Shown here piece by piece: positions 2,492-57,288 of a DNA stretch of 64,000 bases. The translations under genes and the position numbers were made by a program. Location: assembly GCF_003018235.1 (NCBI RefSeq), contig NZ_CP027437.1; one strand, written 5' to 3'. This stretch comes from Escherichia coli. Lineage in GTDB: Bacteria; Pseudomonadota; Gammaproteobacteria; Enterobacterales; Enterobacteriaceae. The notes under the pieces were generated by a model. The model made no database searches, was not told the DNA's origin, and was given only the letters and a program-made list of their open reading frames with translations. Position 1 is the first letter of the stretch; each line of letters opens with the position of its first letter.

Positions 2492-3340
2492 ATGAAACTC
2501 TATGCCCAGGGCACTTCACTGGACCTTAGCCATCCTCACGTAATGGGGATCCTCAACGTCACGCCTGATTCCTTTTCGGATGGCGGCACGCATAACTCGC
2601 TGATAGATGCGGTGAAACATGCGAATCTGATGATCAACGCTGGCGCGACGATCATTGACGTTGGTGGTGAGTCCACGCGCCCAGGGGCGGCGGAAGTTAG
2701 CGTTGAAGAAGAGTTGCAACGTGTTATTCCTGTGGTTGAGGCAATTGCTCAACGCTTCGAAGTCTGGATCTCGGTAGATACATCCAAACCAGAAGTCATC
2801 CGTGAGTCAGCGAAAGTTGGCGCTCACATTATTAACGATATCCGCTCCCTTTCCGAACCAGGGGCTCTGGAGGCAGCTGCAGAAACCGGTTTACCGGTTT
2901 GTCTGATGCATATGCAGGGAAATCCAAAGACCATGCAGGAAGCCCCGAAGTATGACGATGTCTTTGCAGAAGTGAATCGCTATTTTATTGAGCAAATAGC
3001 ACGTTGCGAGCAGGCGGGTATCGCAAAAGAGAAATTGTTGCTCGACCCCGGATTCGGTTTCGGTAAAAATCTCTCCCATAACTATTCATTACTGGCGCGC
3101 CTGGCTGAATTTCACCATTTCAACCTGCCGCTGTTGGTGGGTATGTCACGAAAATCGATGATTGGGCAGCTGCTGAACGTGGGGCCGTCCGAGCGTCTGA
3201 GCGGTAGTCTGGCTTGTGCGGTCATTGCCGCTATGCAAGGCGCGCATATCATTCGTGTTCATGACGTCAAAGAAACCGTAGAAGCGATGCGGGTGGTGGA
3301 AGCCACTCTGTCTGCAAAGGAAAACAAACGCTATGAGTAA
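2492..3340 (+). CDS. folP: Dihydropteroate synthase
   Basis: ORF 2426..3340; N-terminus [32 protein letters not shown] from the ATG at 2492; 282 aa. Confidence 0.95.
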
Positions 3341-4670
3341 TCGTAAATATTTCGGTACCGATGGGATTCGTGGTCGTGTAGGGGATGCGCCGATCACCCC
3401 TGATTTTGTGCTTAAGCTGGGTTGGGCCGCGGGTAAAGTGCTGGCGCGCCACGGCTCCCGTAAGATCATTATTGGTAAAGACACACGTATTTCTGGCTAT
3501 ATGCTGGAGTCAGCACTGGAAGCGGGTCTGGCGGCTGCCGGTCTTTCCGCGCTCTTCACTGGCCCGATGCCAACACCGGCCGTGGCTTATCTGACGCGGA
3601 CTTTCCGCGCAGAGGCTGGGATTGTGATATCTGCATCGCATAACCCGTTCTACGATAATGGCATTAAATTTTTCTCTATCGACGGCACCAAACTACCGGA
3701 TGCAGTAGAAGAGGCCATCGAAGCGGAAATGGAAAAAGAGATCAGCTGTGTTGATTCGGCAGAACTGGGTAAAGCCAGCCGTATCGTTGATGCTGCGGGT
3801 CGCTATATCGAGTTTTGCAAAGCCACGTTCCCAAACGAACTTAGCCTCAGTGAACTGAAGATTGTGGTGGATTGTGCAAACGGTGCGACTTATCACATCG
3901 CGCCGAACGTGCTGCGTGAACTGGGAGCGAACGTTATCGCTATCGGTTGTGAGCCGAACGGTGTAAACATCAATGCCGAAGTGGGGGCTACCGACGTTCG
4001 CGCGCTCCAGGCCCGTGTGCTGGCTGAAAAAGCGGATCTCGGTATTGCCTTTGACGGCGACGGCGATCGCGTGATTATGGTTGACCATGAAGGCAATAAA
4101 GTCGATGGCGATCAGATCATGTATATCATCGCGCGTGAAGGTCTTCGTCAGGGCCAGCTGCGTGGTGGCGCTGTGGGTACATTGATGAGCAACATGGGGC
4201 TTGAACTGGCGCTGAAACAGTTAGGAATTCCATTTGCGCGCGCGAAAGTGGGTGACCGCTACGTACTGGAAAAAATGCAGGAGAAAGGCTGGCGTATCGG
4301 TGCAGAGAATTCCGGTCATGTGATCCTGCTGGATAAAACCACTACCGGTGACGGCATCGTTGCTGGCTTGCAGGTGCTGGCGGCGATGGCGCGTAACCAT
4401 ATGAGCCTGCACGATCTTTGCAGCGGCATGAAAATGTTCCCGCAGATTCTTGTTAACGTGCGTTACACCGCAGGTAGCGGCGATCCGCTGGAGCATGAAT
4501 CAGTCAAAGCTGTGACCGCAGAAGTTGAAGCGGCGCTGGGTAGCCGTGGACGTGTGCTGTTGCGTAAATCCGGCACCGAACCGTTAATTCGCGTGATGGT
4601 GGAAGGTGAAGACGAAGCGCAGGTGACTGAATTTGCACACCGCATCGCTGATGCAGTAAAAGCCGTTTAA
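3333..4670 (+). CDS. glmM: Phosphoglucosamine mutase
   Basis: 445-aa ORF; [15 protein letters not shown]-terminus and active-site SASHNP motif; overlaps the folP stop. Confidence 0.97.
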
Positions 4671-5405: not shown

Positions 5406-6359
5406 CTATTTGCCCAGGCATAAATCTGTTTCATCTAGTTTGAAATCTGTAATTTCTAACTTTTGCATTATTACCGGAAGCACTTGGTGAATTATTCTCA
5501 TGCCAGTGAGGATCTCGTTCATGTATATATCTGGATGAATGCGCGATTTATTGAAATCGAAACTTTCGGCTTCTGCTGCAACGCTAAGTTGGTCAGCGGT
5601 GTTATAAACCATTTCCAGAAGTTCGGCTCTTAACGGGATTCCCGCCCTGAATGCCATCATCTTGAGTTGATTCAACCAATTTTCGTAGTCTTTTTTAACT
5701 CTATAACGAAATTCTTTAAAGTTTGATGCAACAGGAGTATCAATTTCAATTTTGCATGCAGCAAGTGATATCAATGAACTCTGAATATTGATGGCTTCGC
5801 TTGAATAGACATCTAAATCGTCGTCCTGAATCAACTCATCAACATATGCTATGTAGAAACCATAAACATCATTCAGAGCATGATAAATATCATTAATTAC
5901 AGAACAATGAGCATTGCTCTCTAATATCTCCCAAAAAGCCTCTTCTTCGTCAGCATTATCGTCGTCAATATTAAGTCCTTCAGGAAAGGGAAGAGGTGTA
6001 GGAAAACCTATTCGCTTTAATACATCAATTGTTTCTTCAACCAAAAAGCCATCTTCGTCAGTAAGAGGTCGTGTTATATAACCCGTTTCAGCATCCTCCA
6101 TAGCTCGTTGAGCAAGAAAATGGATAAGCCGATCCCATTTCTCAGCATTCTCGACTGAGCCCGTCCATTCAACTAGTTGAGGAGAATAATCTCCTATTTG
6201 TGTAATATTTCTGAACTTTTTTTCCATATCAGCAGACATGTGTTCCCCTTTTTTCCATTTGCTAATTTGTGTTGAGGAAACACCTAAGTGGCTTGCTAAA
6301 TCTTTTTGAGTGCATTTCAGAGTATGTAATGCGAGGCGTACAAAATATTCACCATTCAT
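5406..6359 (-). CDS. HTH (XRE/Cro-CI-like) domain protein with an uncharacterised acidic/helical C-terminal domain, 317 aa
   Basis: Intact 317-aa ORF with an AAGGAA Shine-Dalgarno about 7 nt upstream of the ATG; N-terminal helix-turn-helix signature TQKDLASHLGVSSTQISKWKKGE; no catalytic motif recognised downstream; visibly AT-rich compared with flanking core genes; sits where K-12 has yhbX. Confidence 0.7.
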   Translation of the reverse strand: MNGEYFVRLALHTLKCTQKDLASHLGVSSTQISKWKKGEHMSADMEKKFRNITQIGDYSPQLVEWTGSVENAEKWDRLIHFLAQRAMEDAETGYITRPLTDEDGFLVEETIDVLKRIGFPTPLPFPEGLNIDDDNADEEEAFWEILESNAHCSVINDIYHALNDVYGFYIAYVDELIQDDDLDVYSSEAINIQSSLISLAACKIEIDTPVASNFKEFRYRVKKDYENWLNQLKMMAFRAGIPLRAELLEMVYNTADQLSVAAEAESFDFNKSRIHPDIYMNEILTGMRIIHQVLPVIMQKLEITDFKLDETDLCLGK

Positions 6360-13194: not shown

Positions 13195-13268
13195 ATGCGG
13201 GATAAGGCGTTTACGCCGCATCCGGCATGGATTGCCTGATGCGACGCTGGCGCGTCTTATCAGGCCAA
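13195..13268. repeat. REP (repetitive extragenic palindromic) element pair
   Basis: gcgggataaggcgtttacgccgcatccggca and tgcctgatgcgacgctggcgcgtcttatcaggcc, typical E. coli REP units in the infB-rbfA spacer. Confidence 0.6.
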
Positions 13269-15106: not shown

Positions 15107-15123
15107 TTCTTGCGAGTTTCAGA

Positions 15124-15150
15124 AAAGGGGGCCTGAGTGGCCCCTTTTTT
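15124..15150 (+). terminator. rpsO terminator hairpin
   Basis: Hairpin gggggcctgagtggcccc followed by tttttt. Confidence 0.65.
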
Positions 15151-15352
15151 CAAGCTGACGGCAGCAATTCACTGGAAACTAATGTATTGTTGCTATGAAT
15201 GATCTTCCGCTGCAGAGGTTCGCGCGGCTAATGAGAGGCTTTACCCACATAGAGCTGGGTTAGGGTTGTCATTAGTCGCGAGGATGCGCAGAAGATCGGG
15301 TATTAACACCAGTGCCGTAAGGTACTGTCTAAGAAAGAGAAAGGATATTACA

Positions 15353-33191: not shown

Positions 33192-34055
33192 ATGAAACAA
33201 CACCAATCGGCGGATAATTCTCAGGGCCAGCTTTACATTGTACCGACGCCAATCGGCAATCTGGCGGATATCACCCAGCGTGCGTTGGAGGTATTACAGG
33301 CCGTTGATCTGATTGCCGCCGAGGATACGCGTCACACCGGTTTATTGCTGCAACATTTTGGGATTAATGCTCGGTTGTTTGCGCTGCACGACCATAACGA
33401 ACAACAAAAAGCCGAAACGCTGCTGGCGAAGCTGCAAGAGGGGCAAAACATTGCGCTGGTTTCCGATGCCGGAACGCCGCTAATTAACGATCCTGGCTAC
33501 CATCTGGTGCGTACCTGCCGTGAAGCGGGGATTCGCGTGGTGCCGCTACCCGGGCCGTGTGCTGCTATCACTGCGTTAAGCGCCGCGGGTTTACCATCCG
33601 ATCGTTTTTGTTATGAAGGCTTTTTACCTGCCAAATCAAAAGGCCGCCGTGATGCGCTAAAAGCCATTGAAGCGGAGCCGCGCACGCTGATTTTTTATGA
33701 ATCTACCCACCGTCTGTTAGATAGCCTGGAAGATATCGTTGCGGTATTAGGCGAATCCCGCTACGTGGTTCTGGCGCGTGAGCTAACCAAAACCTGGGAA
33801 ACCATTCACGGCGCGCCCGTTGGCGAGCTGCTGGCGTGGGTAAAAGAAGATGAAAACCGTCGCAAAGGCGAAATGGTGCTGATTGTCGAAGGCCATAAAG
33901 CGCAGGAAGATGACCTGCCTGCTGATGCCCTGCGCACGCTGGCGCTGCTACAGGCAGAACTGCCGCTGAAAAAAGCGGCGGCGCTGGCCGCAGAAATTCA
34001 CGGCGTGAAAAAAAATGCGCTGTATAAGTATGCGCTGGAGCAGCAGGGAGAGTGA
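33192..34055 (+). CDS. rsmI: 16S rRNA C1402 2'-O-methyltransferase RsmI
   Basis: 287-aa ORF; tetrapyrrole-methylase-like motif [15 protein letters not shown]. Confidence 0.93.
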
Positions 34056-34158: not shown

Positions 34159-35115
34159 TCAGGGAGCTAGTTGCGTGGTATAGTTGGCAGCGACCCAACG
34201 ATAACCCTTGCTGTTGCTTTTAACATGCCCCAGGCCAGGGAATGAGATATGGGCAGCTGCCACCCAGTAACCACCCTGAGCCGCATGTTTTAATACTCGC
34301 TCACGGGTTTTTACCGCTTGCTGTTGATCCACATCGAAATGTATCGCCACGTGAGGATCCGGCATCTGCACTGCTTTGGCATGAATAATATCACCCCACA
34401 ACACTAGCGTCTGGCCTTCACTCTCCACTGTGTACATCACGCTTCCAGGTGTATGGCCGGCCGTTGAGGTGGCCGTAATGTCTGCAAATACCGTTGCCGG
34501 TGCGATAAAGGTTTTCAGCTGACCTGCGTTGATCACTGGGCGGATGGTCTGCTCCGATTCGACAAAGGTGTGCTTCTGACTCTCTTCTACTTTCGAGGCA
34601 TTCGCCGGATTAAGCCAGAAATCCGCATCTTTCTGCTCAACGAATACCTGGGCGTTAGGGAAAGCTGGTTTGCCCTGACGGGAGATGCCACCAGAGTGGT
34701 CGGCATGAATATGCGTCAGCAGCACGGCATCAATGGTTTCAGCCGGATAGCCAGCAGCTGCCAGGTTCTCAAGCAGTTGGCCTCCATTGTTGCCAAACAG
34801 ATCGCCCGCACCGGCATCAATCAACACGCGTTGCTGACCATTATCAATAACAAATGCATTGATTGAAGTCTCCGTATGGGGTGTCAGAGAATCCTTTGCC
34901 AGTTGCTGGCGCAGTTTATCGGCAGGAATGTGGGTGAGTAATTTATCTAGCGGAATTGTCACCGTGCCGTCGGAGACGGCGGTAATACGTAGTTTGCCCA
35001 ATATCATGCGGTAATAGCCCGGTGCTTGTGTATCAGGAGGGGGCACAGGTATAGGCGTTGCTAACGCATTTACGGAGAGTACCAGTGAGGTCACCAGAGT
35101 CAGCAAAAGTTTCAT
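34159..35115 (-). CDS. Secreted metallo-beta-lactamase-fold hydrolase (function unassigned)
   Basis: 318-aa ORF; N-terminal signal peptide MKLLLTLVTSLVLSVNALA; MBL zinc motif THIHADHSGG (HxHxDH); divergent from the LysR-type gene. Confidence 0.8.
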   Translation of the reverse strand: MKLLLTLVTSLVLSVNALATPIPVPPPDTQAPGYYRMILGKLRITAVSDGTVTIPLDKLLTHIPADKLRQQLAKDSLTPHTETSINAFVIDNGQQRVLIDAGAGDLFGNNGGQLLENLAAAGYPAETIDAVLLTHIHADHSGGISRQGKPAFPNAQVFVEQKDADFWLNPANASKVEESQKHTFVESEQTIRPVINAGQLKTFIAPATVFADITATSTAGHTPGSVMYTVESEGQTLVLWGDIIHAKAVQMPDPHVAIHFDVDQQQAVKTRERVLKHAAQGGYWVAAAHISFPGLGHVKSNSKGYRWVAANYTTQLAP

Positions 35116-35196
35116 TCTATCCTCGATAAGTTCTGTTATTACAGTACGGGCACCAGTATCCTTTTGCGGATAACATCATTCAAATTGATTAATATA

Positions 35197-36132
35197 ATGA
35201 ACTCTATCAGAGAAAATGATTTAAACCGGGTCGACCTCAACCTGCTAATCGTGTTCCTGGTGCTACATCGAGAGGGGGAGCGTTTCACGTGCAGCCAACA
35301 AGTTACACTTGGGGCAGCCAGCAGTCAGTGGCGCGCTGGCACGGCTGAGAGAAATGTTTAACGACCCGTTATTTGTGCGCACGGCAAAGGGGATGGCACC
35401 GACACCACGTGCACAAGATCTGGTTACGGCACTACTGCCGGTGATGGATCAAATGCAGCAGGTGATTTTTCAAAGGCCAGTTTTTACCCCAGAACAGGAT
35501 CAGCATACGTTTCGCCTGGGGATGAGTGACTGGGTCGAACGCTGGCTGATGCCTGGAATGATGGCAGATATAGCCCAAATGGCACCCGGGATTCGCTTAC
35601 AAGTCACGGCATCCGATCCTTTCCAGGATGGCGAAAAAGTGCAACAGGATAAGGTGGACGTAGCAATCTCCGTCGTGGAGCAGGTGCCCGCCGGAGTGGA
35701 ACGAGAAGTGATCACTCAAATGGGTTTTTGTACGATGTGGCATCCGCTCCAGTTATCTATCACTTCACCGTTAACCCTTGATGTATATACTGAAACCGAC
35801 CATCTTTTGGTCTCTTATCGCGGTGCAAGCAGTAGCTCTATCGATCTGATTTTGGCTGACTGCGGGCGTGGGAAGTGCGTTACGTCACGCCAAATTTCTC
35901 ATCGTTACCGTTGATGTTGAGACAGATACCGGCTTTAGCGACCGTACCGCAGGGGCTGGCAGAAGGTTGGGTAGCCGATTATGGGTTGCAATTTGCCGAT
36001 GTCCCACTCGAGGTTCCTGCTTTTACGCTCTCTCTACTCTGGAATAAGCGGCGTAATAATGATGAGGCGCTGCGCTGGTTACTAGAGAAATTACGTGCAC
36101 GAATGCAGGGCTGGGAGATGTTTTCAGAATGA
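35197..36132 (+). pseudogene. LysR-family transcriptional regulator interrupted by two frameshifts
   Basis: Three consecutive ORFs carry the pieces of one LysR protein: HTH in frame 1 (35164..35361), substrate-binding domain in frame 2 (35309..35914), C-terminus back in frame 1 (35875..36132); the first shift coincides with a G-run at 35311-35314. Confidence 0.65.
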
Positions 36133-36384
36133 GTTTGAAAACGTAACAATGTGAACAGAAAATAAGGGCTTTCTAAATTAAATAATTCCTGTTGAATATC
36201 ATCGTTAGCGACAACATCATCCACGACTACCAGCAGATTTGCACCGATGGTGGATGTTCAGGTCACGCCAACCTGGCCATGAACCAGAAGGTTATCAATA
36301 CGGGTTAAGAGAATATTGAGTAATGTCATAGTCTTATCTCCTGTTATCCTTGTCGCCTTTCATTTTTCGTTCTTTTGGCGGCAA

Positions 36385-36413
36385 TAAAAAAGGCAGATAA
36401 TTAATTATCTGCC
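36385..36413 (-). terminator. Rho-independent terminator of the PTS/C-S lyase operon
   Basis: Hairpin ggcagataattaattatctgcc followed by a T-run on the minus strand. Confidence 0.55.
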
Positions 36414-36420
36414 CTGTGGT

Positions 36421-37593
36421 TTATGCGATTTTTTGCATCCTTTCTAATGCTTGTTCAAGCCAGTATCTTTGGGTGCCGAAGTTTAAACGTAAGTAGTTTT
36501 CACCGTTTTGCACATAATGGCTGCCATCTTCAATAATGACTCCAGCGTTGCGGGCAAAATGATTGACCCATTCGGTCGCGGAGCGTCCACTTTCACTGAC
36601 ATCAATCCATGCCAGATATGACGATTCTGGTGTCATCATTTTCCATTCAGGAAAATGCGTCTTGAGGGCATCATTAAGCCAGTGGGAGTTATTGCGTAAA
36701 TAGATATTTAATGCATCCAGCCACGGTCTTGCATGCTGATAAGCCAGTGTAATTCCCCAAACGCCAAAAATATTCGGCGAAGTGATTGAGTTCATTTCCA
36801 GTCTCTGGCGAAAACGCTGCCTCAATCCTTTATTCGGAATGACTGAGTAAGATGTTTTCAGTCCCCCTAGGTTAAAGGCTTTATTTGGTGATGTTAGCAG
36901 GACCAGATTATCGTGATCGGCACATCCGGTAGCCAGGCAACTGACAAACTCGCCTTCCAGCAGGTGCTCGGCATGGACTTCATCCACGACCAGAATGACG
37001 CCGTAACGTTTACATAAGTCCGAAACCTGGCGAATCTCATCTGCCGTCCAGATTCGCCCGGAAGGGTTATGTGGAGAGCAGAAAAACCATAGTTTAGGTT
37101 TATGAAGTTTAAGCTGATCTTCAACCAGCGAAAAATCCAGTTGATAACGGTTATCCGCAATGCTTAACGGATTTGCCAGCACTTTAACCCCCTGGCGCTC
37201 TGTTGCCATGGCAAAAGGGTCATAGACTGGCGTATTCATCATGACGCTATCGCCCGGCTGGCAGAACGCCTGAACCATATAGTGCAGCGTTGAGACAGTA
37301 CCATAGGTTAGGGTGATCCAATTCTGCTCGATACTTACGTGGTGACGATCGCGCTGGAAGCCTATCACGGCCTCATAAAACTCATTAAAGGCGTATGTGT
37401 AGCCGAAAGTTCCGTGCTCAACAATCCGTTGAAAACCGTCAATTACCGCTGGTGGCGAAGTAAAATCCATATCAGCGATCCAAAGAGGGATAAAATCTTC
37501 TGCAACCGCACCGAAGCGTGAGCAGACAAACTGATGATCCCATTTGCGGCACTTGTCGCTTTTACGCTCGATAATTCTATCGAAATCGAACAT
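36421..37593 (-). CDS. PLP-dependent C-S lyase (MalY/PatB-family class I/II aminotransferase fold)
   Basis: 390-aa ORF resembling MalY/PatB cystathionine beta-lyases (..LLTSPNKAFNLGGLK.. PLP-lysine region); clearly diverged from K-12 MalY, so a paralogue. Confidence 0.85.
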   Translation of the reverse strand: MFDFDRIIERKSDKCRKWDHQFVCSRFGAVAEDFIPLWIADMDFTSPPAVIDGFQRIVEHGTFGYTYAFNEFYEAVIGFQRDRHHVSIEQNWITLTYGTVSTLHYMVQAFCQPGDSVMMNTPVYDPFAMATERQGVKVLANPLSIADNRYQLDFSLVEDQLKLHKPKLWFFCSPHNPSGRIWTADEIRQVSDLCKRYGVILVVDEVHAEHLLEGEFVSCLATGCADHDNLVLLTSPNKAFNLGGLKTSYSVIPNKGLRQRFRQRLEMNSITSPNIFGVWGITLAYQHARPWLDALNIYLRNNSHWLNDALKTHFPEWKMMTPESSYLAWIDVSESGRSATEWVNHFARNAGVIIEDGSHYVQNGENYLRLNFGTQRYWLEQALERMQKIA

Positions 37594-37605
37594 TTTTAAC
37601 TCCTG

Positions 37606-39177
37606 TTAAATTAAAGCTTCAAGGCCCGTTTTCACACTTTGAACTTGCGGGCCAATAATTACCTGCACACTGTGAGCATCCAGTACAACCACCGACAGGG
37701 CACCTGCATTCTTTAACGTGGCTTGATCCACTTTCGACATATCTTTCACCACCAAACGTAAACGAGTAATACAGTTATCCAGTGAATCAATATTTTCTTT
37801 TCCGCCAAGCGCACTCAAAATCACAGCATGATCATATTTAGATTTGCCTCGTGCTTTTGAATTTGCTGCAACAGCCTGTGCTGCATCCTCAGATGAGTCT
37901 TCACGGCCTGGGGTTTTAATATCATGCTTAAGGATGTACCAACGGAAAACAAAGAAATAAATAGCAAACCAAACAATACCCACCGGAAGTATTAAATACC
38001 ATTTAGTAGAAGTACCCTGCATGATACCAAATATTAATAAATCCAAAATCCCGCCATCAGTATTACCGATAGTCACGCCCAGGATTGCCATAACCATTAA
38101 GGCCAGACCGGACATGATAATATGGAATATATACAACGCAGGAGCAATAAAGAGGAATAAAAACTCAATTGGTTCAGAAATGCCAGTAACAACAGATACT
38201 AATACGCCTGAAAGCAGTAAGCCTTTAATTACAGGACGATTTTCTGGTTTGGCTGTACGATAAATTGCGTAAGCCACAGCAGGCAAACCAAACATAAAGG
38301 TTGGCATAAAGCCTTGGGATAAAAACGCAGTAACATGTGGGCTAAAGGGAAGACCGGCTTTTAATTCTGCATAGAAAATATTGAGTGCTCCGGCAACTTC
38401 ATGACCGTCGACAATTTCTGTACCGCCCGCAGGTGTGAAGCGAACCATTGCAAGCAAGATATGATGTAGCCCGAAAGGCTTAAGCAAAAGCACACCAACG
38501 CCATAAAGGAACGGGCCGAATACGCTGGTACTTTGAATAATGTGGCCAATACCAGCAATACCCATTGCAACATAGGTCCAGAGCAAAGGAATGGCCTGGC
38601 CTACTAATGATAATGTTAGCGAAGTGATGATGGGTACGAAGCGGATACCGCTAAAGAAGGCAAAGGCATCATGTAATACAGTATCCTGAAAACGTTCGTG
38701 GAGAAAATAAGTTATTACCCCGGCGATGATGCCACCTAAAACGCCCATCTCTAAGGTTTGAATACCTAATACTACAGATTGACCAACCTGCTTCATCGTG
38801 GCAGCATCGGCAAGTTGATGGGTAACAGTGAGATAATAATTAATACTCATGTTCATTAGCATATAGCCAACAAAACCTGAATATGCGCCTACTGCTTTAT
38901 TTCTCTTTGCCATTCCTAATGGAATTGCAATAGCAAACATAACAGGTAGATAAGTAAATGCAAAGCCACCTACCATTGCAATAAAGCCAAATGTAAGTTG
39001 GGTAAGCTCACCACCTAAAAAGGGGAAGTTATTAATTGTTGAGGGGCTGGTTACTGAACTACCTATACCTAACAGAAGTCCCATAAAAGCGAGTAATGAT
39101 ACTGGGAACATAAATGTTTTCCCTAAACTTTGGAAAAACTCCCAGACCCGTGACTTTATAGACTTTTCCTGTGTCAT
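37606..39177 (-). CDS. PTS glucose-family EIICB component (MalX/PtsG-like)
   Basis: 523-aa ORF; multi-pass EIIC domain plus C-terminal EIIB domain with phosphorylation-site motif NCITRLRL; co-directional with and 13 bp upstream of the C-S lyase gene. Confidence 0.85.
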   Translation of the reverse strand: MTQEKSIKSRVWEFFQSLGKTFMFPVSLLAFMGLLLGIGSSVTSPSTINNFPFLGGELTQLTFGFIAMVGGFAFTYLPVMFAIAIPLGMAKRNKAVGAYSGFVGYMLMNMSINYYLTVTHQLADAATMKQVGQSVVLGIQTLEMGVLGGIIAGVITYFLHERFQDTVLHDAFAFFSGIRFVPIITSLTLSLVGQAIPLLWTYVAMGIAGIGHIIQSTSVFGPFLYGVGVLLLKPFGLHHILLAMVRFTPAGGTEIVDGHEVAGALNIFYAELKAGLPFSPHVTAFLSQGFMPTFMFGLPAVAYAIYRTAKPENRPVIKGLLLSGVLVSVVTGISEPIEFLFLFIAPALYIFHIIMSGLALMVMAILGVTIGNTDGGILDLLIFGIMQGTSTKWYLILPVGIVWFAIYFFVFRWYILKHDIKTPGREDSSEDAAQAVAANSKARGKSKYDHAVILSALGGKENIDSLDNCITRLRLVVKDMSKVDQATLKNAGALSVVVLDAHSVQVIIGPQVQSVKTGLEALI

Positions 39178-55026: not shown

Positions 55027-55403
<377 letters not shown>

Positions 55404-55509: not shown

Positions 55510-56697
55510 CTATATTGCATTTAAAAGGTCGTAATTATACGTATAGTCCTCTCTGGTAAAATATTGATTCTCTGAGTTATAAGCTTCATATGTATTATAT
55601 TTTACGACTTCAAAGCAATTGTCTGAAGAATTTTCGTCTTTCTCGAGTGTATTATCTGGAAGGAATTCCTCTGAGCTAGAGTCCTCTATGTTTAAATCTG
55701 TATTGTAATTAATTTTTGGATCGATTAGATAAGCATTTCCTTTGACGCTTTCATAATCTTTAATGATTATATCGATGTAATAATCTATTTTTTCTGATGA
55801 GAATGCTTTCATCTCTGGTAATCTAATTCTGTTCAAGTAATTGTTAATTTTCGATGAGCTTTTATATATTTCTTTTGTTAATTCATTTTCTAATTCATCT
55901 GTTAGAGTTGCTCTTGGTATAGATTCTATAATTGCAAGTCTCATAATTTTTAATTGTTCTTCGGTAATATCCCCAAGCGCATTTAAACAACTTTCGACAA
56001 GCTTAATTTTTTCTTCAGAATACATATCGCTAATGCTTGTTATAACAGGCGTTATTTTTAGTAAATAATCCCAGGAGATTGTGGCGTTTTGTGTTGAACT
56101 AACGAAATTTACCTGAAACATGTTGGCATTAGTAAAATCTGTGTCATCCAATTTAAAAGGATTTAAAATTGTATTGGCCATATGTTTATCTGTAAAATCA
56201 TAAAGTTCTAAATCGACATTCCGTAAGTCCAGAGAGGATAGATCAACTATACCTCCAGTCCCACAACTAAAGATTACGTTCAACCTCCTGATTTCATTGT
56301 AAATGTCTTTCAATGGGCAATTAACATTGATATTGCCTGTGGATATTTCCTGGTTTTTTAACGGTTCATTAATGGTAAGTTCACAGGTATTGTCTGATCG
56401 TTGAATAATTCGGGCGTTATAACCTAAAAAATCCAGACGAAGAGACGAGTCATTATAAAGAATTACATTTTGTAAGTACGCTAATTCTTTTTGAAAATCA
56501 CCAGTGATAATGCATTTCCCACCTGGTTGTAACGCGTTAAGTAAAGTGACCATTTGAACAGAGGTCTGTTTTAGTTTTTCTATGCCTGGTGCTAGTGCTT
56601 CGAGGTTATTTCCTATGGGGCTTTCAGGAAGATCATTCATTTTTCGACGGGCTAAATCACAACTAATATCATTACCAATTGATGAAACAGGGGACAT
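55510..56697 (-). CDS. yhaC: Uncharacterised pentapeptide-repeat-containing protein YhaC
   Basis: 395-aa ORF; very AT-rich; central run of pentapeptide-like repeats (DLSSLDLRNVDLELYDFTDKHMANTILNPFKLDDTDFTNANMF); position next to rnpB matches K-12 yhaC. Confidence 0.85.
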   Translation of the reverse strand: MSPVSSIGNDISCDLARRKMNDLPESPIGNNLEALAPGIEKLKQTSVQMVTLLNALQPGGKCIITGDFQKELAYLQNVILYNDSSLRLDFLGYNARIIQRSDNTCELTINEPLKNQEISTGNINVNCPLKDIYNEIRRLNVIFSCGTGGIVDLSSLDLRNVDLELYDFTDKHMANTILNPFKLDDTDFTNANMFQVNFVSSTQNATISWDYLLKITPVITSISDMYSEEKIKLVESCLNALGDITEEQLKIMRLAIIESIPRATLTDELENELTKEIYKSSSKINNYLNRIRLPEMKAFSSEKIDYYIDIIIKDYESVKGNAYLIDPKINYNTDLNIEDSSSEEFLPDNTLEKDENSSDNCFEVVKYNTYEAYNSENQYFTREDYTYNYDLLNAI

Positions 56698-56718: not shown

Positions 56719-57288
56719 TCAATAAAAATCATTATTAAAATGATCGGGTGAAAAAAAGAGAATTTGCCAACAATCTGAAGGAATGGCTGTTTTATTAAAG
56801 TACGTAGGGGGGGTTAAGATGGCTTCTTTTCGGGTGAATTTTGCACAATACTTAGAAATCGTCTCCTTAATATATTCCAGCTCTTTTTTATTGACGACTG
56901 AGCAAGTACATTGTTCACCAAAAGGTGCAAAAGTGCCTACATCTAATGTTTGTATGATGTAATCGTCATGTTCTCCTGTAGAAATATCTATGATGAATGG
57001 ACTCATATTTTCCGGTTGGATTCGGATCATGACAGAAGGAATATCGCCTTGATAGAAATTCAATGCAGTAATTGCAGATAATACTCTCCGCAGTTCATTA
57101 CTTATACTGTAAATTTTATTAACGTCATTGGTGGAGACAATTTCTGCAAACTTTCTTTTTACCGTCCAATAATCAATATTTCTATTGTGATTGTTAACCA
57201 CTGCGTGCATTGGCGGGATTGAAGGGTGAAAAATATGTGCAATTGGGAAGCCTTTCATTGATGCCTGCCTTGTCATCATGACAAACAA
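56719..57288 (-). CDS. yhaB: Uncharacterised protein YhaB
   Basis: 189-aa AT-rich ORF immediately downstream of yhaC on the same strand; start is uncertain. Confidence 0.75.
   Translation of the reverse strand: MFVMMTRQASMKGFPIAHIFHPSIPPMHAVVNNHNRNIDYWTVKRKFAEIVSTNDVNKIYSISNELRRVLSAITALNFYQGDIPSVMIRIQPENMSPFIIDISTGEHDDYIIQTLDVGTFAPFGEQCTCSVVNKKELEYIKETISKYCAKFTRKEAILTPPTYFNKTAIPSDCWQILFFSPDHFNNDFY

Follow-up and report, generated by a model that had tools for sequence, protein, structure and literature searches.

LysR-type transcriptional regulators (LTTRs) share a common architecture, and the hallmark of their binding sites is a T-N11-A dyad (PMC11495319). Regulators of the NahR/DntR/NodD/MexT-like group have about 310 residues, carry an HTH_1 and a LysR_substrate domain, and are associated with a divergently transcribed target gene, with a T-N11-A dyad lying in between. 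Their neighboring genes belong to a dioxygenase pathway or an efflux pump. Structures of DntR are deposited as PDB entries 1UTB and 5AE4 (PMC4730206).

Two other described systems are relevant here. Multi-lesion frameshifted pseudogenes of recent enterobacterial clones carry a first inactivating indel that is followed by further indels and substitutions; the broken allele is inherited clonally, and intact alleles are found in sister lineages. The DHCH/MPH family of hydrolases (PDB 5HIF/6C2C and 1P9E) is known for an evolutionary transition in which lactonase-like dihydrocoumarin hydrolase (DHCH) ancestors gave rise to methyl parathion hydrolase (MPH) (PMC8222346).

In this study, we analyzed a LysR-type locus in a stretch of Escherichia coli DNA of 64,000 nucleotides, hereafter the window. 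The regulator encoded there, once its reading frame is repaired, resembles the NahR/DntR/NodD/MexT-like LTTRs in domain content, length, divergent target gene and intergenic T-N11-A dyad. It differs from them in that the gene is a pseudogene and its neighbor is a lactonase-like MBL hydrolase instead of a dioxygenase pathway or an efflux pump. As a decayed gene it is like the multi-lesion enterobacterial pseudogenes in its succession of lesions, its clonal inheritance and the survival of intact alleles in sister lineages; nothing essential separates it from them, except that the indels here sum to -3. We consider it very well supported that the locus is a genuine, clonally inherited LTTR pseudogene in one E. 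coli lineage. It is a routine recent pseudogene, of a kind already known.

Three collinear LysR ORF pieces are present in the window, at 35164/35197-35361 (frame 1), 35309-35914 (frame 2) and 35875-36132 (frame 1), and translation in all frames gives LysR-like sequence in the order 1, 2, 1. The same region is collinear with a single 945-bp ORF in E. coli N96 and O145:H28, at about 97.5% identity, and residues 27-228 of the N96 protein map to the window in frame 2 by tblastn. Alignment to these two intact orthologues, a check that the earlier note on this DNA had called for, reveals exactly two indels and places both exactly. The extent of the former ORF was defined by alignment to intact 945-bp orthologues (L001/L002) and to an intact 939-bp allele of the same haplotype (L005/L006). 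Its features are as follows.

35197..36132, plus strand: LysR-type transcriptional regulator pseudogene; the former ORF has 312 codons after one G is removed and AAAA is restored.
35197..35361, plus strand: product readable from the native ATG, with 27 native residues (MNSIRENDLNRVDLNLLIVFLVLHREG) and 27 out-of-frame residues, ending at TAA 35359-35361.
35254, plus strand: C>T substitution in what was the helix-turn-helix region (Leu20 to Phe); private to the window and absent from 9 of 9 other alleles of the haplotype.
35274..35278, plus strand: +1 G insertion in a G-run, presumably the later lesion; GGGGG here and GGGG in every intact allele; the true reading frame passes from 1 to 2.
35279..35869, plus strand: central segment, native protein in frame 2 (SVSRAANKLHLGQPAVSGALARL ... 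ILADCGR), comprising the rest of the helix-turn-helix (HTH), the linker and most of the effector-binding domain.
35869..35870, plus strand: junction of a 4-bp AAAA deletion, presumably the earlier lesion; CGT-AAAA-GGG in intact alleles; Lys225 is removed and the true reading frame passes from 2 to 1.
35870..36132, plus strand: C-terminal segment, native protein in frame 1 (..EVRYVTPNFSSLPLMLRQIPALATVPQ...EMFSE), with stop TGA at 36130-36132.

The repaired protein scores 66.2 bits against PF00126 (HTH_1, cut-off 26.6) over residues 14-73 and 75.7 bits against PF03466 (LysR_substrate, cut-off 28) over residues 99-304 of its 312 aa, as expected of an LTTR. It differs from an intact 312-aa E. coli allele at a single residue (L20F). 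The alignment and the Pfam scores bear out the suggestion of the earlier note that a single LysR-type regulator gene was broken by two indels, and the near-identity to the intact allele agrees with its view that the lesions are recent. Several of its details need revision. It spoke of three reading frames, of which only two are used. It assigned the first shift to the run cttGGGGcagcc at 35311-35314; intact alleles have the same run there, and the extra G is found 37 nt upstream, at 35274-35278. Dropping a G at 35311-35314, which it expected to repair the HTH, would leave ERFTCSQQVT where SVSRAANKLH belongs. The latter, the canonical helix, is already encoded correctly in frame 2 by 35279-35310, and with the extra G placed at 35274-35278 the repaired HTH reads ...LHREGSVSRAANKLHLGQPAVSGALARL.... 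The second indel was located to within 5 nt of its true place, and the alignment now gives its exact form, loss of AAAA between 35869 and 35870. The two lesions are 595 bp apart, not about 560 bp.

Without repair, the additional G at codon 27/28 splits the HTH, and ATG-initiated translation covers 54 codons before it is ended by the TAA. Past the AAAA deletion, frame 2 continues for 14 junk codons to TGA 35912-35914, which gives the ORF at 35309-35914 the tail GRGKCVTSRQISHRYR. A DNA-binding, tetramer-forming LTTR is encoded by a single uninterrupted ORF; because this locus carries two frameshifts and its translation ends after 54 codons, it is an LTTR pseudogene and not a working member of the family. 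The indels of +1 and -4 sum to -3, which returns the last 87 codons to the original frame. This net change is a coincidence without functional meaning, because translation from the ATG cannot cross the 595 bp that separate the lesions. The deletion had been thought to compensate for the insertion; the stop at 35359-35361 intervenes between them, and a sister strain has the deletion alone.

Both lesions touch homopolymer runs (G4/G5 and A4), and the earlier note had left room for assembly indels, that is, for a gene that is intact in the organism and only miscalled. To examine other sequences of the locus, contigs were found by exact look-up of the neighboring hydrolase sequence in public assemblies, and their LysR regions were then aligned. 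Both lesions are present, gap-free, in two NCBI assemblies (GCA_012768955.1 and GCA_011972655.1) and in the Logan assemblies of SRR35421096, SRR21461730 and SRR18885539; only 2-5 SNPs per 6.5-9 kb separate these five from the window. The window, L003, L004 (both NCBI) and L008-L010 (Logan) have G5; L001, L002, L005 and L006 (both ENA), L007 (GCA_974490345.1) and L018 (Logan SRR30658444) have G4. The two ENA assemblies have the same haplotype with an intact 312-aa gene. Exact look-up of the 186-aa fragment protein (P0137) with the frameshifted tail gave 20-23 contigs, some from NCBI and some from Logan assemblies of different SRA runs, in records that carry the source name Escherichia coli. Three fragment-bearing contigs align to the window without gaps and with 2-4 mismatches over 6.5 kb.

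The remaining genes of the window provide a further control. Reference proteins were taken from the closest annotated genomes, and 57 of the 57 non-LysR proteins map on the window full-length, in a single frame and with zero gaps; LysR alone splits. A search for frameshifts elsewhere in the window, also proposed in the earlier note, thus found none in these 57. Two more proteins, from the yhaB and yhaC positions, did not reach the 80% identity required and were left unscored. Given the independent assemblies, the look-ups of the fragment protein and the frameshift-free state of the other 57 genes, both lesions are biological and clonally inherited. A sequencing or assembly artefact is extremely improbable, since both lesions recur in identical form in at least five isolates that were sequenced and assembled separately, the protein look-up gives 20-23 contigs, loss of a whole A4 run is atypical of a homopolymer miscall, and none of the other genes tested is frameshifted. 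What can be said for it, apart from the runs themselves, is a different, one-base loss in the same A run in a long-contig assembly (L007) and in a poor-quality Logan product (P0009).

These two sequences have irregularities of their own. At 2982-3919, L007 has a LysR copy with G4 and with AAA in place of AAAA, and a malX-like gene is also split in this assembly; P0009 has the same change of AAAA to AAA together with several odd substitutions. Their one-base losses may be sequencing errors and not independent mutations. In the NCBI assemblies with both lesions, a protein record is absent between the flanking genes, although the ENA and Logan assemblies have a called product at that place; judging by NCBI annotation practice, the absent record would fit a pseudogene call by the annotators. 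An exact-pattern scan for the deletion junction with 0-4 bases at the gap gave no match among GTDB species-representative genomes.

The assembly L018 is informative with regard to the order of events. It has the AAAA deletion together with G4, it is the sole record of the deletion-only product in exact look-ups, and at several SNP sites it matches the strains with intact alleles and not the clade with both lesions. For the opposite intermediate, with the additional G only, two expected products were looked up exactly, and neither occurs in the protein collection. Because a sister strain has the deletion alone, the parsimonious order, which relies on this one intermediate assembly, would place the deletion first and the G insertion later, as subsequent decay.

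A possible history of the locus can be outlined on this basis. The ancestral gene was intact, and its product was a 312-aa regulator that had a winged helix-turn-helix at the N-terminus and an effector-binding domain at the C-terminus. Divergent from the gene for an exported MBL-fold lactonase-like hydrolase, this regulator would have bound an ATC-N9-GAT dyad, by analogy with other LTTRs, and would have controlled the hydrolase gene and probably itself too. Loss of AAAA at codon 225 would have truncated the effector-binding domain at residue 224. A +1 slip in the G4 run at codon 27-28 would have followed in the already dead gene, cutting the product to 27 native residues, and the C>T change at 35254 (Leu20Phe) would have arisen in this genome only. 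The clone can make no functional regulator, and the hydrolase gene would now be left at a basal, regulator-free level of expression.

We also considered that the split gene might be functional or switchable, through run-length phase variation, ribosomal frameshifting over both lesions, or production of an HTH-less effector domain from an internal start near 35309/35354. The indels do sit in mononucleotide runs, their net change is -3, and an open ORF of 186-201 aa covers most of the effector-binding domain. The runs, however, are just 4-5 nt long, unlike those of a phase-variable gene, and both G5 and the AAAA deletion are invariant in 6 of 6 genomes of the clade, so switching is unseen. Reading through the gene would require two frameshifts in opposite directions. 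Programmed ribosomal frameshifting is also at odds with the orthologues in E. coli and four other genera, which are single ORFs of 304-314 aa (304-311 aa in the related genera); the frame changes in LysR occur in one clone only. What is left as an internal ORF has no HTH and has 14 junk residues at its end, and a product of the gene is absent from the NCBI assembly records for the LysR stretch. We therefore regard a functional role for the split arrangement as highly implausible and retain the reading as a pseudogene.

Erwinia, Pantoea, Serratia, Franconibacter, Buttiauxella, Kosakonia, Cronobacter and others have homologues of the lost regulator, at 49-70% identity. Among solved structures, DntR chains, matched full-length with E-values of about 1e-45, and the effector domain of MexT (1e-25) come closest to it. 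All named NCBIfam equivalogs score below their cut-offs, with BsrA the best (202.8 against 480), followed by LeuO (120.9 against 262) and LelA (103.3 against 500), and because the protein is below every one of these cut-offs it is an unnamed LTTR.

The presumed target of this regulator and the presumed control region lie immediately upstream.

34159..35115, minus strand: MBL-fold metallo-hydrolase of 318 aa, presumed regulatory target; intact, with an N-terminal signal peptide and an HxHxDH motif (THIHADH).
35116..35196, no strand: divergent intergenic region of 81 bp between the hydrolase gene and the LysR pseudogene, presumed bidirectional control region.
35175..35189, plus strand: ATC-N9-GAT / T-N11-A dyad ATCATTCAAATTGAT, candidate LysR site; intact, ending 7 nt before the LysR ATG.

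The hydrolase scores 67.5 bits against Pfam PF00753. Its closest solved relatives are 5hif, a reconstructed dihydrocoumarin hydrolase ancestor (2e-87, residues 23-313), and methyl parathion hydrolase 1p9e (4e-78). It is thus like the DHCH/MPH family in its full-length match, its HxHxDH metal motif and its signal peptide, and is known here from sequence. With 202.6 bits against NF047979, the model for AidB-type quorum-quenching AHL lactonases (cut-off 360), it is related to that family and not a member of it. The identical hydrolase sequence is found in strains with intact LysR.

The pairing of the two genes extends well beyond E. coli. A divergent regulator/MBL pair is present in Erwinia toletana, Serratia, Franconibacter and Kosakonia, with a hydrolase of 313-318 aa and a spacer of 73-90 bp. 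Outside the pair, gene content is unrelated among Erwinia, Serratia and the two genera Franconibacter and Kosakonia, which have downstream genes in common with each other. Because the divergent arrangement is kept amid unrelated neighborhoods, there is good evidence that LysR and the MBL hydrolase would form a functional pair. The intergenic regions have otherwise diverged, and the sole block conserved across those of E. coli, Erwinia, Serratia, Franconibacter and Kosakonia is the box ATCAyTCmAATwGAT, which E. coli, Erwinia, Serratia and Kosakonia match at every position and Franconibacter at all but one. The window contains a single copy, against a chance expectation of 0.05.

As in other LTTR systems, a presumed target gene stands divergent to the regulator here and a T-N11-A dyad lies between the two, which suggests that the dyad was a binding site. 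An LTTR site is expected near -65 of the target promoter, and the dyad here is nearer to the start of the regulator than in the textbook layout. Its exact role is uncertain because it ends 7 nt before the LysR ATG, and part of its conservation could reflect the translation-initiation region of LysR. Control of the hydrolase gene by LysR is proposed on account of the synteny and the motif, which make the hydrolase the likely target of the lost regulator. Of the two alternatives in the earlier note, that the divergent MBL hydrolase gene has lost its regulator, there called an activator, is accordingly judged likely, as both the pair and the box are conserved in other genera. Most likely, the system was an aromatic-compound- or lactone-responsive LTTR controlling an exported lactonase, of which the sensor has been lost and the enzyme gene and candidate operator have been kept.

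Two further observations concern this region. A sigma-70-like match at 35170-35198 consists of ATAACA, a 17-nt spacer that holds the dyad, and TATAAT (10 of 12 positions), and its -10 element overlaps the LysR ATG; it is not conserved in the other genera and, as a promoter, is uninformative and probably a chance match. An Rfam scan found no RNA family overlapping the LysR locus.

Could the loss have been selected? Inactivation of the regulator might have benefited the clone, for instance if the exported hydrolase was silenced or derepressed as a result, with the second lesion mere decay. Consistent with this idea, the broken allele is fixed in a much-sampled clone, the hydrolase gene is still intact, and the A run appears to have been hit again in other backgrounds (L007 and P0009). 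However, 2-5 SNPs per 6.5-9 kb make this a very young clade, in which fixation by clonal descent calls for no selection and the intact state of the hydrolase is uninformative. The other hits in the A run come from data with signs of error, namely the malX-like split in L007 and the odd substitutions in P0009, and the intact allele is far commoner, its 314-aa form being present on at least 1000 contigs. An advantage of the loss is therefore unlikely, and simple clonal decay remains our preferred reading. More specific proposals, that the loss was selected for a changed expression of an exported dihydrocoumarin-hydrolase-like enzyme or, as a variant, that the HTH-less effector-domain ORF is expressed with an activity of its own, would have to be called decidedly improbable. 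If selection did act, the clone would be a natural knockout pointing to the role and the inducer of a conserved LysR/lactonase module of Enterobacterales.

The significance of the pseudogene itself goes little beyond correct annotation: the split is biological, the coordinates of its lesions are exact, and its decay appears stepwise, by a deletion and then an insertion. Its practical value lies in the pair to which it belonged. LysR/MBL-lactonase pairs are known from Erwinia, Serratia, Franconibacter, Kosakonia and some E. coli. The clone and its sisters with intact alleles make up a natural set of knockout and controls for this uncharacterised pair, and the ATC-N9-GAT box offers a concrete candidate operator.

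The locus is sparsely distributed in the species. A megablast search with 35100-36200 detected it in 63 of 5,426 complete E. coli genomes, at about 97.5% identity, and the annotation in those genomes is one 945-bp "LysR family transcriptional regulator" beside an "MBL fold metallo-hydrolase". In the window, its surroundings are the following.

33192-34055, plus strand: rsmI, intact flank.
36182..36329, minus strand: PTS IIB gene remnant with internal stops; RefSeq has "incomplete; internal stop" at the equivalent stretch in L001 and L002.
36421-37593, minus strand: MalY/PatB-like aminotransferase, intact flank.
37606-39177, minus strand: MalX-like PTS IIBC, intact flank.

The PTS IIB remnant is also present where LysR is intact, and for this reason it is, by comparison of these sequences, taken as a separate and older decay event. 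The block at 34159-39177, with the MBL hydrolase, LysR, the PTS IIB remnant and the MalY-like and MalX-like genes, lies between rsmI and kbaY; in E. coli AF39, the closest core-genome relative, agaB-agaC-agaD-agaI stand in its place. At 36390-36415, a near-perfect hairpin with an AT-rich center (GGCAGATAATTAATTATCTGCC) is followed by a T-run on the minus strand and looks like the terminator of the MalY-like gene.

Other features of the window lie outside this block. Between argG and a tRNA-Leu gene, 5406-6359 (minus strand) encodes a 317-aa protein with a helix-turn-helix domain. The gene at this position in K-12 is yhbX. The possibility that 5406-6359 is a truncated yhbX, and thus a second pseudogene, was ruled out: the gene is annotated as intact in AF39, and the match is full-length, gap-free and in a single frame. 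At the yhaC/yhaB position, 55510-56697 and 56719-57288 (minus strand) are open ORFs of 395 and 189 aa with less than 80% identity to the N96 proteins; they are a strongly divergent allele or a replacement. Finally, Rfam matches to naRNA4, SraG and RNase P RNA were obtained at 13196-13266, 15123-15294 (minus strand) and 55027-55403, and others to the S15 and rimP leaders and two tRNAs, all of them away from the LysR locus and at the positions expected for E. coli.
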